A DNA stretch of 64,000 bases from a phage. The notes under the pieces are model-generated. The model was not told the origin of the DNA, did not search any database, and was given only the letters and a program-made list of their open reading frames with translations. The position numbers and the translations under genes were made by a program. Each line of letters opens with the position of its first letter. The first letter of the stretch is position 1. Location: assembly GCA_024614665.1 (NCBI GenBank), contig GCA_024614665.1_4861.1. One strand, given 5' to 3'. Shown one piece after another: positions 33,186 through 53,701 of this stretch.

Positions 33186-33394
33186 CGTACACCGTTTCCG
33201 TATACAGCAGGTGTGCTAAGACACCCTCCTTATCTCTCGACAAGGCACAGACTATATCTTCACCATAGCTTACGCCTTAGGTGTTCTCCCACTTCGAAGT
33301 CCACTAGGACCCCTACTCGCATTTCAGCGATAGTCGTTGAACATTCCTCTCACGAGGCTTCGCTGCTGATTACCCATTATCACAACCCTTAGCA
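33186..33394 (-). other. putative intron in beta-prime-like gene (boundaries uncertain, may span about 33200-33600)
   Basis: ORF-free gap between beta-prime N-terminal homology and the DFDGD segment; no ORF inside. Confidence 0.45.
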
Positions 33395-34897
33395 CTATTG
33401 TTTAGCATAGGTCATCGTATCTGTTGTTTCAGACTTTCGTCCCCATTTCTGGTAGATACGCTTTAGGGTTTCCCAGCAATTCAGGAGAATACACATCGGA
33501 GGTTTCCCGTCCGATGGGGCTCTTTTCGAACCGTTAGCCATCTTTATCACACGGTCAGAGATACGCAGCGAACACTGGTTAACATCGGTAACAACTTCGT
33601 CGATGAACAGCGTCTGAATAGACAACTGTACCAGCGTTGGGTTACGTAGCGGTATAACCATGATCCCAAGACCGCCTGGGGATTCACGAATCAGTTCTTT
33701 AAAGATTTCGTCTACAAGCGGGTCATACTGCATTGCCGCTTTTGCGACGATACGTTCACACTGCCGCGACGAATAACCCCGGCGTAGCAGTTTGTTCTCG
33801 ATGTGGGTCGACATCAACCCAACCATCCAACGCCATGGTGCTTTTAACTTCCAGGCATCGTGTGGTTCTGAGATAGGTGAGATGGTTGCACGACCACCGA
33901 ACGGAATATGGGTGGAACCCAATTTCGCACGATAGTCACCCGGTTTACCTTCCATAGACTCACGACGGAAGTCCATGTGGAAGTACGTTAACTGACGGTT
34001 CGCTTTCAAAGCGCGACTAATCAGAAAACGCGGTTCGATCGCTTTACGCCGCGTATAAAGTAACGCGATATTTTTCACCGCATCAATAGCACCCGTGAAC
34101 ACTGGGTCTACCATGACACCACGACGACCTTCCTCAGTAACGATAAGTTTAGAGGAGATTAGCGGTAAGTGTCTTGGGAAGAATGCATGGCGTTGCGTTT
34201 CGAATAGCTCCTTCCATTGTAAACGTAAGCGTTCGCCTTCAGCGGCGTTATGCCGATTAGGTGCGAAGATTTCCTTCCAGGCTTCTGGCGTGGTAAGGAT
34301 GTTAAAGATACTAACGTGGTTATCAACCAGATTGCGCAAGCCACGAACGAAACCATGTTCTTCCAATACACGTTTCACAGCATGTGCGCGTTTACCGTCT
34401 GGTTCTTCTATAAGGTAATACGGGTCAATCATCCACATCATCAAGTCATTACCGCGTTCGATAGTGACCTTGTTACGTTCAAACTTCTTCAACTTGCTAT
34501 TAAAGAAAGCATTGAACATTGCCCAGAATCGTGGGTTGACGAAGTTACCCATTTCATCAGGTGCACGTAACCATACATCGGATTCAATTCGATGTTCAGT
34601 TACAACATAGCCACACGTCGGACACTTACAACCGAGATTGTAACGATGCGCGATCGGTGCCGGACAATCCAAACTACAAATCGGTGCAGAGTTCAGTTCT
34701 TCGTCAACGATTCTGTTCTGTACCATGCGATCGATAAGTTCAGCAACCTCGATCGCATCCCCGTTAACAGCGACATCGTTAATAATAGTGGGTGGTTTAA
34801 TACCTTTGGCAGCAGCTTCTATTTGCAAATCGGACAAATAGTTATCCTGACTAACCAACCGGCCGGATATTCCGTAGAATTTTGGTACCTTTCTCAC
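33395..34897 (-). CDS. RNA polymerase beta-prime N-terminal-like subunit, putative exon 1
   Basis: Zn-finger-like CSLDCP...CKCPTC; LRNPTLVQLSIQTLF resembling RpoC NRQPTLHRMSIMAF; catalytic DFDGD absent from this ORF. Confidence 0.65.
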   Translation of the reverse strand: MRKVPKFYGISGRLVSQDNYLSDLQIEAAAKGIKPPTIINDVAVNGDAIEVAELIDRMVQNRIVDEELNSAPICSLDCPAPIAHRYNLGCKCPTCGYVVTEHRIESDVWLRAPDEMGNFVNPRFWAMFNAFFNSKLKKFERNKVTIERGNDLMMWMIDPYYLIEEPDGKRAHAVKRVLEEHGFVRGLRNLVDNHVSIFNILTTPEAWKEIFAPNRHNAAEGERLRLQWKELFETQRHAFFPRHLPLISSKLIVTEEGRRGVMVDPVFTGAIDAVKNIALLYTRRKAIEPRFLISRALKANRQLTYFHMDFRRESMEGKPGDYRAKLGSTHIPFGGRATISPISEPHDAWKLKAPWRWMVGLMSTHIENKLLRRGYSSRQCERIVAKAAMQYDPLVDEIFKELIRESPGGLGIMVIPLRNPTLVQLSIQTLFIDEVVTDVNQCSLRISDRVIKMANGSKRAPSDGKPPMCILLNCWETLKRIYQKWGRKSETTDTMTYAKQ

Positions 34898-48329: not shown

Positions 48330-49151
48330 TCAGCGAAGGGCGTCGGTAGTCTTACCGTGAGAGTTAACCACGTAGACTTCGTCGCCTTTATAAAACAGTT
48401 CGTACAACGCACCGGTACTGATCTGGTTATCAGGATCGTATCCAGATTCTTCTTCGATGCACATTGCGCCAATCAGTTCATCGACTGACCGGTCGCCAGG
48501 GCGAGCGCCTTTTAAAACAGTGACAACGCACTCACCATTAACCCATTGTGAGTGTTCCTGGACATCAGTGAACTCGATAGATGGACCAGGCTCTAATTTG
48601 GCTTGTTGCAGTTCTTCCTGAGTGTAGACAATAATCGCCATGTCGCTATCAGGAGACGGCTTGTACCAACCTAATTTTTCTAAGGGCGTACCGAAACCAA
48701 CGAGTTCGCCGCAGATACTATCCATGGCTTCCGGTTCACATAAATTTGTCGCCAGTACCAAGATAGCGTTGCCCTTATTATCTAGCACGTAGCTAATAAA
48801 CTCGCGTGCGTTGCAGTTAAACACCTCGACCGTTTCCAAATCGGGGATAATAAGGTTGGGGAAAAGCTGCCTCAGGTATACGTGAGCATAAAGCTGACTT
48901 GTAGACAGGCGCTGCTGCCAGCTACAATAATCAGACAAATGCATGGTGTTCGGATCAGGCACATCAGGGGCAACGCGTTTTAACCCCGGATTAAGGGCTA
49001 ACTTTTCATCACCGACAACGATGTCGAAGCGCTCGTTCTCGAGCATTTTTAATGCCTCGCGGAATACACGAGACTTACGGTCACCGATACGAACCTTTTC
49101 ATGTTCGGTAATGATACGGTCACCATCAATCACACGTTTAACTGTAAACAT
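48330..49151 (-). CDS. hypothetical protein
   Basis: ORF 48330..49523 trimmed to ATG (MFTVKR) with AAGGAAAG SD; the longer N-terminal extension is low-complexity. Confidence 0.6.
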   Translation of the reverse strand: MFTVKRVIDGDRIITEHEKVRIGDRKSRVFREALKMLENERFDIVVGDEKLALNPGLKRVAPDVPDPNTMHLSDYCSWQQRLSTSQLYAHVYLRQLFPNLIIPDLETVEVFNCNAREFISYVLDNKGNAILVLATNLCEPEAMDSICGELVGFGTPLEKLGWYKPSPDSDMAIIVYTQEELQQAKLEPGPSIEFTDVQEHSQWVNGECVVTVLKGARPGDRSVDELIGAMCIEEESGYDPDNQISTGALYELFYKGDEVYVVNSHGKTTDALR

Positions 49152-49529
49152 GTTGCTTTCCTTCTTACTACTATTGCTGCTTCTATTGGTAGTCCACGAC
49201 ATATCCCTCGTGGGTGGGTTCGGTGTGTAACCGAATAAGTTTTTCTGTTCCCAGGGCAACGCACCAGGCTTAATTGATTTAGTTGGCAAACCAGGAACAG
49301 AAAAGGGTGAACAGACCAGGGCGCGAGGTGGCTCTGTAAGGATGCGTAAGAAAAACCCAAACGGCCCTGGTCTGTAATTTGGCCCGAAGTCACCGTGTCG
49401 GAGGACAGCCCATGCAGGTAGGCGGCAATGGACACGGTGACCGCGGAAGTGGTTCGTGTTACCCTTGACCCGTGTGTGGATACGCGTCTTATTTCGAATG
49501 CCTTCGGGATAAGGATAACACAAATGGGG

Positions 49530-49605
49530 CGAGCAAACGGACGGATTCGAACCGTCGAAATATCCGATTATGAGTCGGGTGTTAATTCCTCTAACTTCGC
49601 TGCTC
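49530..49605 (-). tRNA. tRNA-like, anticodon CAU (Met or Ile2), imperfect acceptor stem
   Basis: T-arm GACGG-TTCGAAT-CCGTC, anticodon loop CTCATAA, D-arm GTTA..TAAC; acceptor pairing imperfect. Confidence 0.5.
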
Positions 49606-49606
49606 T

Positions 49607-49675
49607 TGCTTTGACCGGTCTCGAACCGGCGACCTTCCTCAAAGAGGTTGCTCTACCTACCTGAGCTACAAAGCC
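49607..49675 (-). tRNA. atypical tRNA-like element (about 69 nt), anticodon uncertain
   Basis: Acceptor GGCTTTG/CAAAGC, D-arm TAGCTCAGGTAGGTAGAGC, T-arm GCCGG-TTCGAGA-CCGGT; anticodon/variable region 3-4 nt too short. Confidence 0.4.
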
Positions 49676-50450
49676 ATTGTAAGGTGCCGGTGCATCCCGG
49701 CGTGTGTTAGTGCAGTCAGCTCCCTCGGGCCTATCTGCGGCAACACGTTGCCCGGCGCACCGACATATACCACAGTAACCTCGTAAAGTCACTCTGGTAT
49801 TGTTCGTTGCATATTACTAAGTTATCACGTAAACGATTTCACCACTTCCAATAATTAACCTAAATTCATTTCTGAATGCAGGTGATGGACTTCTTCTTCT
49901 GAGCCTGGCCATAAGGTCAGGTCTTAGCGTCTCCAAGCACCACCCGCTATCACGTACATTCGTGGCGTACCGGCCGTATGAGGTACCGCGCCTACGGTGA
50001 CACACAGTCACCCTAACACTGGGAACTCAATCCCATTTGATTATCAGATTGTGGATTTACAGGCGTAGCGTAGCGGCTTAATGGGCCGGTGCTTGCCTGT
50101 CCCCTAGGGACGGTTGTCGTGGAGACGCCAGTCTGTAAGTGGGGCCCTTACGGGAAAACCCATCGCCTGTAAACCAAACATGACTGAATACCCAGAACCG
50201 GACGTTTGAAATCAACATCCTGATGTACTGGAGTATTTCATGCATAAACGTGTCTCGTATCGAATGAGGTTATGACCGGTCAGATACCCAGCATCCTGTA
50301 CAAGCGACCTGGTGCTTTGTGTACCTGGCTGCTACGGATTTATCGGTTTACCGTAGGTCTGAGCTGCTACCGGCTCATGCGGGACATCAACCCGCACAAT
50401 CTGAGTAAGTATCATGGCTCGAATAGGGTTAGTGGGCCGAAGCCCACTGT

Positions 50451-50693
50451 TTAGCCAGCATTGAACGATTCATGAACGACGGTCCCAGCAGGATAGTGCG
50501 TAGTGCCGATAAGAGTAACGGTCAGGGTAAGCCCTTCATCCCAGCGCTCTTTCGGTAACCAGCGGCAGTCCATCCAATGACCACAGTCGGGAGGAATTGC
50601 ACACGCGGCTTGCTCCGTAGGAGCCGCCACGATTATGGAATCAAATTCATCGTACCCGATATCGTCAGTTCGTTCTAGCAAGTACAAATTCAT
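50451..50693 (-). CDS. hypothetical small protein
   Basis: 80-aa ORF with GGAGAA SD, just downstream of tRNA-Trp. Confidence 0.5.
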   Translation of the reverse strand: MNLYLLERTDDIGYDEFDSIIVAAPTEQAACAIPPDCGHWMDCRWLPKERWDEGLTLTVTLIGTTHYPAGTVVHESFNAG

Positions 50694-50757
50694 GTTGTTC
50701 TCCTACAGTTGACAAATCTGTGTCTTCTGTGTTGAACCTGAATTCGTTGGCTAAATG

Positions 50758-50834
50758 TGGCGGGGGCACGAGGTTTCGAACCTCGAACCTTCGGTTTTGG
50801 AGACCGGTGCGCTACCAATTGCGCCATACCCCCA
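50758..50834 (-). tRNA. tRNA-Trp (anticodon CCA)
   Basis: Minus-strand GGGGGTATGGCGCAATTGGTAGCGCACCGGTCTCCAAAACCGAAGGTTCGAGGTTCGAAACCTCGTGCCCCCGCCA: canonical cloverleaf, loop CTCCAAA, 3' CCA encoded. Confidence 0.85.
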
Positions 50835-50926
50835 GAATTCTTTAAACGTGTTTATACGGATGCGCTACCCCGTTATCGCAGGCGATTGATGGGGTCAAGC
50901 TTGCGTGCTTCTGACTCCCGCATGAT

Positions 50927-51418
50927 TCACCTCCGTAGTTCGTAAGTGCTAATCTCACCACCGGTGTAGATATCGCATTCGGACGCAATCTCAACAGCAC
51001 GAACCGCATTCGCGCCCATCTTCATCGCACCCAACGCGTACTCGTAACCGCTTCCGGTTGCCAGAGGTGGTGTGGCTTCACTCCACCACAACGACACGTC
51101 GTCTTCACGCTTCCCACCGACTATCGCTTTCCCTGAGGCCAGAAGCATCAGGAAAGTAAAATCCATCTTCGCAGGTAACTGCGAGCTTTGTGTTAACCCC
51201 TTGTAGCCGGGTCTCAAGCGGATAGTTTCCAGCAGGGCCAATTGTCCTGTGATGTCGCCGCTTACCCCGAACACCACAATTCGTTCACCGGTAATCCACC
51301 ACTCCTCGTCAGGAGGACAGACGAATAACTTCTGGGTATTCAGGTTGCAGATATTCGACCCACGGGTTAACTGGCCGTCAGCAGCTAAGACTTTTCCATC
51401 GAACGCTATCGTGGTCAT
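50927..51418 (-). CDS. HslV-like N-terminal-nucleophile peptidase
   Basis: MTTIAFDGK..AADGQLT..VFGVSG..TGSGYEYA..ASECDIYTGGE resembles E. coli HslV including Thr directly after initiator Met; GGAGA SD. Confidence 0.7.
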   Translation of the reverse strand: MTTIAFDGKVLAADGQLTRGSNICNLNTQKLFVCPPDEEWWITGERIVVFGVSGDITGQLALLETIRLRPGYKGLTQSSQLPAKMDFTFLMLLASGKAIVGGKREDDVSLWWSEATPPLATGSGYEYALGAMKMGANAVRAVEIASECDIYTGGEISTYELRR

Positions 51419-52388
51419 GATTTAATTCTCCGTTTGGTTTATCATACCTCACGCAGAATCTGTAAATTTTAATCAGCCAGGTACCGTCGTTTCTCAACGG
51501 GAGTACCCACCCCTCTCGTCTGTTCCGAGCCGCCAAGATTTGGACCAACCTCCTCGTCGGAGTTATCCCCCAAGTCTGCGGTTCTACACGCAGACCCCTT
51601 TTCGACGCAACGCCGAATTCGAATCAGTTTTGGCCCGACGCCAGAGCGGAATCAGCGATAACTATCGGAGGTAAGTTCAACGACGTCTCTCCGCTGCCCA
51701 GTCCTCTGGCGCTGCCACGGTCAACTCGGATTTTGTCATGGGTGCGCAGTCGACTTTCTCGACACTCTCGCAAACCGAACTACGCCCGACGTAGCACCGT
51801 CGGCAGGTCGGTTATTTACCGAGTACCTGAATGGGTGGTGATTGTCGGAATCCCCGCCGACGCTCACCGGTTCTGTTCCACGGCGAAAGTTTTCCAGAAC
51901 ATAATAAATCACGCAGTGTTAGATTGCGCTTTGTCGAAGACACCACGGTAGGTATTTTCGAAAAAGCGTCCTGGGTAACAATCCCAGGACTTGGAGCCCT
52001 AGCGTGCAGGGTTTAAAAGTGATTGGACCATTGGCGCGGTCAATCGCTATTCGCATATAACAACAAACTCACGTAATCAAAAAATTACCGGCTCGAGGCG
52101 TAGGCGTCCAGGAGCCGGTGAGTCACACAGCAGTGAGTCCCTCTGCGGGGATTTTCGTGGAGCTTGTCGTTGGAATAAAAATCCGTCCCCGGACGGGTTG
52201 GTGGTGTGGGTCGACTTGTCAGAGTCTGCCGTCCAGGGAGGCGGCCACCGAAGCTATGGGTTTTGGACATCGAGTGGTGGTCTGAACACACGATAGGGAA
52301 ACCACGTAAAAAATACACAGGGTACCCAAACCAGGACGTCTGTCCGATCACGATCTCTTAATAAGGATCACGCGCGCGCCCGCACGCG

Positions 52389-52497
52389 TTTTAAGATCTT
52401 AATATATTAATATATTTATTTATATAAATAATTATAATAATTAAATATAATACCTAAAGGTATTATTATATTTAATATTATTATATATTTTAAAAGA
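52389..52497. repeat. 109-bp almost pure AT island with internal palindromes, flanked by alternating CG tracts and ATAAGGA direct repeats
   Basis: Perfect 16-bp palindrome TTATTTATATAAATAA at 52416-52431; CG tracts 52369-52388 and 52511-52532; ATAAGGA at 52361-52367 and 52533-52539. Confidence 0.7.
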
Positions 52498-53124
52498 TCC
52501 TGGAGGATACGGGTGTGCGCACGCGCACGCGTATAAGGAAAGGGTCTTCGACCCGATCCACAGGATCGATCTAAAAAACAATCTAAGTGATTGTTTTAAA
52601 AAGAAATTTTGAGAATTAGATTAAATTATCCCCTAAGGGGGATTTTAGAGTGAGTTAAACAACCCAAAGAACTCGTAAGTAACCGACAGTGTGTGTCGGT
52701 TACAGAACGATCCAGTTTTCACCCAGACATGGCACGAAGTGCTACCCAACGTGTGATCGTCGTCGCCGGCCGCGACCGTCACCTCGGAGCCGAAACGGGA
52801 ATGGCACTCTCGCGCTCTCAACGGCCCGCTGGCGCGATTTTCCGGTAGGGGGAACCCAAGTGTACTGGGTCAGGTATAAATCTCGTTCTAGCGCTTTCTA
52901 GAGCGTTTTTAATAACTGGTTAAAAAACATACAATCCTGAATCCACATTCCCTGAATTTCCTCGCCCCGACAAAAATAAATTCTCTGTCTCGATACATAA
53001 CCCCCTCTAAAACGCACGTAACCGACCCTAGAAAACGATAAACTGCCAAAAACGAGCTACCCTACATCCAGACCACTTAATCGTTTTCTGACGTCTCCTA
53101 GACCCCCTTTAACCGGCCGGTTAA

Positions 53125-53184
53125 AAAATAATCAAAAAAAAATAAAAAAAATAAGATTGGCGTACTCCCCGAAGAGAGTACGCC
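53125..53184 (-). terminator. intrinsic terminator
   Basis: Hairpin GGCGTACTC-loop-GAGTACGCC followed on minus strand by long T-run. Confidence 0.65.
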
Positions 53185-53191
53185 TAGTGAC

Positions 53192-53701
53192 TTAACACTT
53201 GATGGTATAGCCATCAAGGCCAAGGTGTACTGGTTTTATCCATAACCCTGGCTCCCCGAAAATATTCAGGTCGTAAGTTTGGTAATGCATGATCTTTGCA
53301 GGAACATGCACACCCATGCGCTGCAGAAATTCCCAGACGGCGATGTAGCGTTCACGTGTGATGAACATTAACCCGGAGTCGAACCCGGAACCGATGTCTA
53401 AGAAATTACCAAGAGAACTGTCAAAACTTGACACACCATCTTGAGTAAGTGCGACCAACCCTTTAGTTAAATCTCTGTGGTTGTCAATGAAGTTACAGAG
53501 ATCTACGATGGTTATTTGACCGTAAATACGACGGAGGACGGCAGCAACAGCCAAAATCTCGCTGGTATTTCCGTAGTCACCTAAAGGGTTATGGTCCATC
53601 ATCGCAGTAATTATGCTTGTGTCACAGAGGTCGATTAACCGCTGGTCGTGTACCACCAGGTTAAGACCTTGCCCCACCCGCATGGTTGGCGCAGTAAACA
53701 T
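53192..53701 (-). CDS. hypothetical protein
   Basis: Start set at ATG (MFTAPTMRV) with AAGGAG SD; terminator downstream. Confidence 0.65.
   Translation of the reverse strand: MFTAPTMRVGQGLNLVVHDQRLIDLCDTSIITAMMDHNPLGDYGNTSEILAVAAVLRRIYGQITIVDLCNFIDNHRDLTKGLVALTQDGVSSFDSSLGNFLDIGSGFDSGLMFITRERYIAVWEFLQRMGVHVPAKIMHYQTYDLNIFGEPGLWIKPVHLGLDGYTIKC

Follow-up and report, generated by a model that had tools for sequence, protein, structure and literature searches.

The locus described here spans 49152-52380 of a phage DNA of 64,000 nucleotides (GenBank assembly GCA_024614665.1, contig GCA_024614665.1_4861.1), which is called the window below. The 3.5 kb around the locus are 99% identical to the Salmonella phages SaP7 and SPN3US, and 41 phage records match this region; the window belongs to an SPN3US-like Seoulvirus, a ~240-kb, phiKZ-related, nucleus-forming jumbo phage of Salmonella. 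The minus strand carries every gene of the locus, and three unannotated gaps lie among them (C, B, and A in transcription order, Table 1). The gaps contain the predicted structured elements C1, B, and A. The main subject is B, a predicted multi-domain RNA of ~0.53 kb (525 nt in the window) that is conserved in four jumbo-phage genera. The initial annotation, made from the DNA alone, had proposed large structured RNA here, in GC-rich intervals with no credible open reading frames (ORFs) beside a tRNA cluster. The GC content is raised only mildly (0.50-0.58 in the gaps vs. about 0.46-0.48 in the flanks), and the word cluster overstates one confident tRNA-Trp gene and two weak tRNA-like genes. 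The proposed intervals also merged what are several separate units, as the structured RNAs alone number three and are accompanied by a tRNA leader, by promoter-like motifs, and by small units bounded by terminators. The five inverted repeats named there all exist, at coordinates a few bases off.

Table 1. Features of the locus in transcription order (positions in the window).
Feature	Positions	Strand	Remarks
Gene	ending at 53192	minus	Strong terminator; first in transcription order
Gap C			~1.77 kb, unannotated; between the gene ending at 53192 and the HslV-like gene
Small conserved unit	51960-52059	minus	~95 nt; TATATG 52054-52059, two hairpins, intrinsic terminator 51968-51990 with U-run
Inverted repeat CCTGGG / CCCAGG	51968-51990		Terminator-like hairpin
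Element C1	51475-51720	minus	~245 nt; closed by long-range helix 51717-51720 / 51530-51533
Inverted repeat	51639-51646 / 51704-51711		CGCCAGAG / CTCTGGCG; stem GCCAGAG / CTCTGGC, in C1
Inverted repeat GTCTGCG / CGCAGAC	51589-51596 / 51573-51580		Helix of C1
Promoter-like TTTACAG-N12-GTATG	51443-51466	minus	Upstream of the HslV-like gene; pattern match and conservation; GTATG 51443-51447
HslV-like peptidase gene	51418-50927	minus	
tRNA-Trp gene	50833-50758	minus	Confident; Rfam tRNA match 50761-50833
gp264	50693-50451	minus	
Gap B			775 nt, unannotated; gp264 to the tRNA-like genes
UUCG-tetraloop hairpin	50431-50448	minus	Adjoins the gp264 stop codon on its downstream side, just before B; confined to Seoulvirus (sequence and alignment A1)
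Element B	49874-50399	minus	Predicted multi-domain RNA
B, 5' domain	50274-50399	minus	Hairpin P1 50375-50399 (7-nt loop) and junction
B, 5' junction	50369-50373 / 50274-50278 (closing helix)		Encloses P2 50332-50356 and P3 50282-50326
Micro-ORF in B	50078-50245	minus	55 aa in the window, 55-63 aa in relatives; peptide MHEILQYIRMLISNVRFWVFSHVWFTGDGFSRKGPTYRLASPRQPSLGDRQAPAH
B, central domain	50056-50173	minus	10-bp helix around covarying small hairpins (helices 7-10) and the ORF stop codon
Inverted repeat	50056-50065 / 50164-50173		TTTACAGGCG / CGCCTGTAAA, complementary 10/10; the 10-bp helix of the central domain
B, variable arm	49963-49996	minus	Variant 1 of three unrelated hairpins
B, 3' domain	49874-49951	minus	Long irregular hairpin (helices 14 and 15) with purine-rich internal loop
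Spacer, B to tRNA-like genes	49676-49865	minus	Invariant TATATG 49764-49769 and structured tRNA 5' leader
tRNA-like gene	49606-49675	minus	Rfam tRNA 38.1 bits; anticodon loop of 3 nt; not called by ARAGORN
tRNA-like gene	49532-49603	minus	Rfam tRNA 30.6 bits; CAU anticodon loop; not called by ARAGORN
Gap A			378 nt, unannotated; tRNA-like genes to gp262
Element A	49152-49529	minus	Six hairpins: 49453-49524, 49384-49446, 49311-49375, 49241-49304, 49218-49236, 49194-49213
Inverted repeat	49384-49399 / 49431-49446		Contains GTCACCGTGTC / GACACGGTGAC
gp262	49151-48330	minus	

The gaps were compared with SPAsTU and pEa_SNUABM_29, relatives described as ~70-75% diverged. In blastn, B and C align end to end with both phages at 67-77% nucleotide identity; the HslV coding sequence between them is barely alignable, and its protein is 37-43% identical. 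Six-frame tblastn of the gaps gave comparable scores in all frames, real genes excepted, which indicates conservation at the DNA level. It is therefore very unlikely that the gaps hold ordinary unannotated protein-coding genes with incidental structure. Open frames do run through A (397 aa), across C1 on the plus strand (161 codons), and through 52085-52357 (88-90 aa), and small hypothetical proteins are annotated here in some relatives. However, gap C has no frame of at least 40 aa that remains open, with indels in multiples of 3, in the two relatives SPAsTU and pEa_SNUABM_29. The frame through A, considered as an N-terminal extension of gp262 and rejected, is interrupted by 20 stops in SPAsTU, and PHROG gives no support to its upstream part. 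Indels in the arms of B are not multiples of 3, and a micro-ORF of 55 aa in B alone passes the tests.

For B, an alignment of 15 non-redundant lineages (A2, 45-75% identical between clades) was folded with RNAalifold. The consensus has 81 pairs (39-40 of them with compensatory changes) in 15 helices. In an independent count, 40 of the 81 pairs are changed on both sides, compared with 27.7 ± 2.5 in column shuffles and 5-12 in the slid control, in which the pairing was shifted by 1-3 columns and which is the fairer test. Paired cells amount to 95.3% (column shuffles, 81.9%; slid, 35-46%), and compensatory cells to 176 (58 and 8-29, respectively). The 5' domain corresponds to consensus helices 1 and 3-5. 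Its helix P2 shows five pair types, and the closing helix of the junction, read from the sequences, holds in 15/15 of them with compensation at two positions.

The 3' domain is the conservation peak of the locus, with 45 of 85 columns invariant across genera and a mean between-clade identity of 76%. Compensatory pairs are found in it at A2 columns 567/635, 570/632, 571/631, 594/608, and 596/606. It also contains AAGUCC, whose resemblance to CR-I of RNase P extends over 6 nt only. Two pseudoknots suggested for B by an automatic helix scan (the P1 loop with the second Trp codon region, and AAGCACC with GGUGCUU) conflict with supported helices or never vary, and were not adopted.

The variable arm exists in three unrelated versions with a mosaic distribution, even among phages that are 90-95% identical (L011 vs. 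L013, L006 vs. L012, and L020 vs. L024), and the same version is common to phages of different genera. This distribution points to recombinational module swapping. The arm is present in a single copy in the window, where no second copy of B was found either. A match of the arm (49965-50015) to the L17 ribosomal-protein leader RF03132 was rejected: it scored 22 bits (E = 7.7) where the gathering threshold is 34.9 bits, and no such match was reported for L012, whose arm is the same. The arm loop CGGUACCU(C/G)AUACGGCCGG, in the window CGGUACCUCAUACGGCCGG, is nearly identical to the conserved loop of the L17-leader family, and is noted as a lead only.

Invariant or frequent G·U pairs fit a minus-strand RNA only. 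Examples are columns 573/629 of A2, which are GU in 15/15 sequences, and columns 325/363 of the C1 alignment (A4), which are GU in 11/11. Since such pairs become A·C mismatches on the other strand, the structures of B, C1, and A can be assigned to minus-strand RNA. No conserved plus-strand pair of promoter and terminator was seen in B. The same observations bear on DNA-level elements, such as a replication origin, a packaging site, or a recombination hot spot, as the source of the repeats. Several deposited genomes do start in or beside the locus, and an A+T island with palindromes is located at 52400-52520. But conserved G·U pairs are meaningless in duplex DNA, the covariation keeps pairing and not sequence, and the island lies outside A, B, and C1. 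We regard such elements as a quite improbable explanation.

The absence of credible ORFs, as initially stated, holds for A and C but not for 49676-50450, where the conserved micro-ORF of B is located. The ORF has a counterpart with ATG in 15/15 sequences and no in-frame stops (0 vs. 16-22 per half in the other frames); its length changes keep to multiples of 3, and in the N-terminal half variation is lowest at the second codon position. It matches phrog_26199 (E = 7.6e-5), an unknown-function family built from versions annotated in Machinavirus. Open frame, indels, substitution pattern, and family match all mark it as a putative protein-coding gene. In the AF2 prediction, residues 2-26 form a helix, with a predicted local distance difference test (pLDDT) score above 90 over the first ~20 residues, and the tail is disordered. 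The N-terminal half is modeled as a conserved amphipathic helix with H, E, and R residues, and the tail as basic and disordered. Its start and its helix-coding half lie in a segment of B with little structure; start-site accessibility, calculated from single-sequence partition functions, gave a weak signal. B was also considered as a hok-like type I toxin mRNA, and this was rejected: the peptide, with its H, E, and R helix and basic tail, is not hydrophobic, and no antisense RNA is evident.

The C-terminal half of the micro-ORF is encoded by freely covarying small hairpins (for example, AGGAC-GAGA-GUCCU vs. AGGGC-GCAA-GCCCU), whose loops are of the GNRA type in some lineages. The UAA that closes the frame is part of the invariant stretch CCGGCCCAUUAAGCCG and is located in an invariant hairpin loop. 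In the tail, RNA and not protein appears to be the main constraint, though the frame stays open to the fixed stop. The initial annotation had held that short coding genes with homologs would speak against a non-coding RNA. A micro-ORF of this kind is indeed present, but its 168 nt are a minor part of the about 525 nt of B, and covarying hairpins make up its 3' half; the other ~360 nt of B are not explained by it.

B was found once per genome, as a single nhmmer copy of ~0.53-0.6 kb, in 61 phage records from four genera, and also in IMG/VR and metagenome contigs of ~240-kb phages. No match was obtained in 5,426 E. coli genomes, and the search of 100,044 species genomes with the B 3' motif returned only four 22-mers, which is the chance level. 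Extra motif scans of IMG/VR recovered the same jumbo-phage clade again and one 27-nt chance fragment in L036. The family thus appears confined to SPN3US-related jumbo phages, namely Seoulvirus, Machinavirus, Erskinevirus, Wellingtonvirus, and uncultured relatives. In all relatives examined, B heads the tRNA array on the same strand: upstream of B is a protein gene (gp264 or one resembling a TRAP receptor gene), and after B comes the first tRNA, which is tRNA-Tyr or tRNA-Gly; a small gene or ParB is sometimes inserted between B and its neighbors. In Erskinevirus, tRNA-Gly starts about 10 nt after the last conserved block of B, and 4-5 nt after the aligned core.

C1 is predicted to be a second structured RNA conserved across genera, and includes two of the inverted repeats named at the outset (Table 1). 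In alignment A4, which comprises 11 lineages, C1 has 51 pairs, 25 of them with compensatory changes (12.6 ± 2.2 in shuffles), and 93.8% of cells are paired (37-48% when slid). Element A is conserved within Seoulvirus only. Its arms are perfect helices of 11-12 bp, and 24 compensatory pairs were counted among three Seoulvirus lineages. In the fourth hairpin, the stem sequence is replaced wholesale with the pairing kept (CUGUUCC, CUGGGGCAG, and CCGGGAUGG). Folding energies were expressed as z-scores of the minus-strand minimum free energy (MFE) against dinucleotide shuffles, and were -6.3 for 49152-49529 (A), -3.8 for 49676-49865, and -2.8 for 51800-52100. Thermodynamics alone would miss the B core and C1.

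Known RNA families were searched for with cmscan and the 4227 models of Rfam 15, at the gathering threshold in the window, and at E ≤ 10 in 48900-53400 and in the homologous loci L010, L012, L013, and L014. Only tRNAs and chance matches were obtained at E ≤ 10. RNase P models, which represent the universal core, gave no match at this threshold in the region or the homologous loci, ARAGORN reported no tmRNA, and neither A nor B nor C1 is flanked by a split gene, as would be expected around a group I intron. The gathering-threshold scan did detect such an intron on the minus strand elsewhere in the window (33228-33537; Rfam Intron_gpI at 65.5 bits and E = 2e-14, with the model matched over its full length). 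This intron was the positive control, so the negatives are not a matter of sensitivity.

In 48900-53400, the tRNA model at E ≤ 10 matched only 50761-50833, 49606-49675, and 49532-49603, and nothing in A, B, or C. This argues against an origin of the gaps by decay of a formerly larger tRNA array. Relatives do carry 6-17 tRNAs here, and the two tRNA-like genes of the window are degenerate. Nevertheless, B, C1, and A (A within Seoulvirus) coexist with full arrays, at the same positions outside the array, and their conservation and covariation are incompatible with pseudogenes. Decay is a most improbable origin.

The proposal of large structured RNA in gene-poor intervals beside tRNA genes was supported by the comparative check suggested with it: covariation across related phages indicates structure in B, C1, and A. 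The families named as candidates did not fare so, since GOLLD, ROOL, group I and II introns, tmRNA, and RNase P RNA have no model match at E ≤ 10 in this region of the window or in the four loci, which are divergent. That B is a member of one of them is improbable in the extreme, given these scans and the detected intron. Its internal ORF, whose Shine-Dalgarno sequence is weak at best, is loosely reminiscent of tmRNA, and its size, ornate structure, phage origin, and tRNA adjacency are like those of GOLLD and ROOL (PMC5737381, PMC7567579).

Compared with tmRNA, which also occurs in phages, B is likewise structured and has an internal frame whose end falls within a folded part of the RNA; it differs in having no tRNA-like domain, a conserved AUG, 55-63 codons, and no end resembling a degradation tag. 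The tRNA cluster of T4 contains stable, structured non-tRNA species (species 1 and 2, rnaC and rnaD) that are co-transcribed with the tRNAs and freed by tRNA-processing enzymes. They are about 120-140 nt long and contain no ORF. By description, which is the level of this comparison, B resembles them in its place beside phage tRNA genes, but is longer and has an ORF. Dual-function and type I toxin RNAs (SgrS/SgrT, RNAIII/hld, and hok) combine an ORF of ~50 aa with long-range structure, which in hok gates translation. B also pairs an ORF of about this size with conserved RNA structure; however, its predicted peptide is amphipathic and charged, not a membrane toxin, and its 3' domain is much larger and more conserved.

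Phage K and ICP1 produce abundant long non-coding RNAs (lncRNAs) from ORF-less gaps, next to tRNA genes in phage K and of ~800 nt in ICP1 (PMC9241854, PMC7567579). B is likewise located in a gene gap and, as in phage K, beside tRNA genes. Those lncRNAs are defined by expression, with no reported covariation structure, whereas B, which is not known to be related to them in sequence, is defined by structure deduced from sequence. GOLLD and ROOL are large, ornate phage or prophage RNAs, often adjacent to tRNAs (PMC5737381, PMC7567579). B is like them in being at least 0.5 kb long, multi-domain, rich in covarying helices, phage-encoded, and tRNA-adjacent in all relatives examined. It differs in matching neither covariance model, in its occurrence in jumbo phages of Enterobacterales, and in its conserved ORF and mosaically swapped arm.

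We propose that B is the founding member of a previously undescribed family of tRNA-operon-linked phage RNAs of ~0.53-0.6 kb with a dual function, structural and coding, and we hold this reading with about even confidence. Full-text literature searches yielded no published description of B, C1, or A; the latter two are predicted to be further structured RNAs that bracket the tRNA genes. The phage non-virion RNA polymerase would transcribe B along with HslV, tRNA-Trp, and gp264, because no promoter-like motif is present between the gp264 stop codon and B. Host tRNA-processing nucleases would release or trim it, and the 3' end would be made by RNase P cleavage, as suggested by the Erskinevirus tRNA-Gly that begins about 10 nt after the last conserved block of B. 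The product would persist as a stable dual-function RNA. Its folded 5' and 3' domains would serve at the RNA level, probably in protein binding or in a ribonucleoprotein, possibly with its own basic peptide. Ribosomes that reach the invariant stop of the micro-ORF would unwind the central helices, and translation would in this way be coupled to the RNA fold.

The main rival is a purely cis-acting role. Here B would simply encode a small protein, on an mRNA whose untranslated regions (UTRs) are long, structured, and in control of its stability or translation; C1, A, and 49676-49865 would be leaders, trailers, or processing and stability signals, and there would be no free stable RNA. We consider this possible, if rather doubtful. 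It agrees with the conserved ORF, whose start region is accessible and little structured, with the position of all elements on the gene strand between genes, with the end of A at a strong gp262 ribosome-binding site, and with the promoter-like TATG motifs and terminator-like hairpins interspersed among them. It does not readily account for the most conserved part of B, the 85-nt 3' domain, which lies about 130-205 nt downstream of the ORF stop and is under far more constraint than is typical of UTR stabilizers. The C-terminal half of the ORF evolves as RNA hairpins and not as protein, and the 5' and 3' domains are kept beside differing neighbors (gp264, the TRAP-like gene, ParB, or a directly adjacent tRNA).

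Several points weigh against the dual-function RNA that we favor. With its conserved ORF, B could simply be an mRNA, and its stability, ends, and processing are all inferred. The alignments consist of 11-15 related sequences, so shuffle controls overstate significance. The consensus structure of B is incomplete and some of its helices are clade-specific; among these is the 10-bp stem of the central domain, which is invariant in nine sequences, absent from six of Erskinevirus or Wellingtonvirus type, and carries no covariation support. The MFE z-scores of the B core and C1 are about -1, and those of coding controls range from -0.1 to -3.3. As for the peptide, the predicted AUG is preceded by nothing stronger than weak purine tracts (GAG, GGUGA) that resemble a Shine-Dalgarno sequence, and no match was found in a database of 5.8 billion proteins. 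Finally, transcription and translation are spatially separated in nucleus-forming phages, which limits models of co-transcriptional coupling.

A more far-reaching version of the dual-function reading, drawn by analogy and in our view unlikely, is that B, perhaps with C1 and A, is a new class of large ornate RNA that serves as a machine or scaffold when nucleus-forming jumbo phages infect, made of RNA only or of RNA and peptide. It could be comparable to the multimeric cages of ROOL/GOLLD type (bioRxiv 10.1101/2024.12.08.627333), translation of the micro-ORF would switch the fold, and the arm would set partner specificity.

Structured RNA classes of more than 500 nt are rare in bacteria and phages, and each one found (OLE, GOLLD, ROOL, and others) opened new biology. 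B has covariation support, is absent from Rfam 15, and occurs in genetically tractable phages; SPN3US has an amber-mutant system. Its distinctive combination of an ultra-conserved RNA domain, a micro-ORF ending inside the fold, and a recombining arm provides testable handles. Because these phages build a nucleus-like compartment, whether a large folded RNA would be retained, exported, or processed with tRNAs is a question of its own. The annotation of about 60 deposited genomes, in which this space is shown empty or with doubtful small ORFs, is corrected as well.

As to the minor features, the tRNA-like gene at 49606-49675 has normal acceptor, D, and T arms and the anticodon-arm sequence CCUC-UUU-GAGG, and is annotated as tRNA-OTHER in SPN3US. 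It cannot decode, and may have become a pseudogene or serve as a tRNA-like RNA in some other role. Antisense across both tRNA-like genes, a 78-aa protein is annotated at 49428-49664 on the plus strand (SPN3US gp263 and its SaP7 homolog); this is probably a spurious gene call. The spacer between B and the tRNA-like genes contains the invariant motif GTATATGT (alignment A1). The ~95-nt unit in gap C is conserved in Seoulvirus and Erskinevirus (alignment A6), and its terminator stem (CCTGGG / CCCAGG) covaries. The invariant TATATG and GTATG motifs are likely start sites of the non-virion RNA polymerase, as late promoters of phiKZ are defined by T-3ATG+1 (PMC7598289).

The terminator scan found 16 terminator-like hairpins, compared with 4.6 ± 2.6 expected. 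Two of the hairpins with a U-run, at 52183-52196 and 52087-52119 on the minus strand, are ~100 nt apart and upstream of the small TATATG unit, and the terminator-like sites at 52075-52196 suggest further short transcripts. In some relatives, additional ORFs of 0.3-0.6 kb are inserted upstream of the HslV-like gene or between it and C1 (L003, 5678-6253; L004, 4981-5370; L005, 5405-5719), which lengthen the spans and split the BLAST matches into several pieces. Pfam gave zero matches for the neighboring and inserted ORFs. The use of HslV in tblastn as an anchor to more distant jumbo phages was abandoned, as the family is too widespread. Several assemblies of the Salmonella phages SPFM (LR535901-LR535921) align here in 9-40 short pieces per kb and others in one, which looks like indel-rich assembly and not biology.

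The A+T island at 52400-52520 is a 130-bp tract without any G or C, and has GCGCGC-rich palindromes and inverted GATCTT on its flanks. With a conservation of about 80% between genera, it contains sigma-70-like hexamers and coincides with the start point of several deposited genomes (SPN3US, SEGD1, and JN03). Possible roles are those of an early-promoter block, of a DNA-unwinding element, or of an origin.

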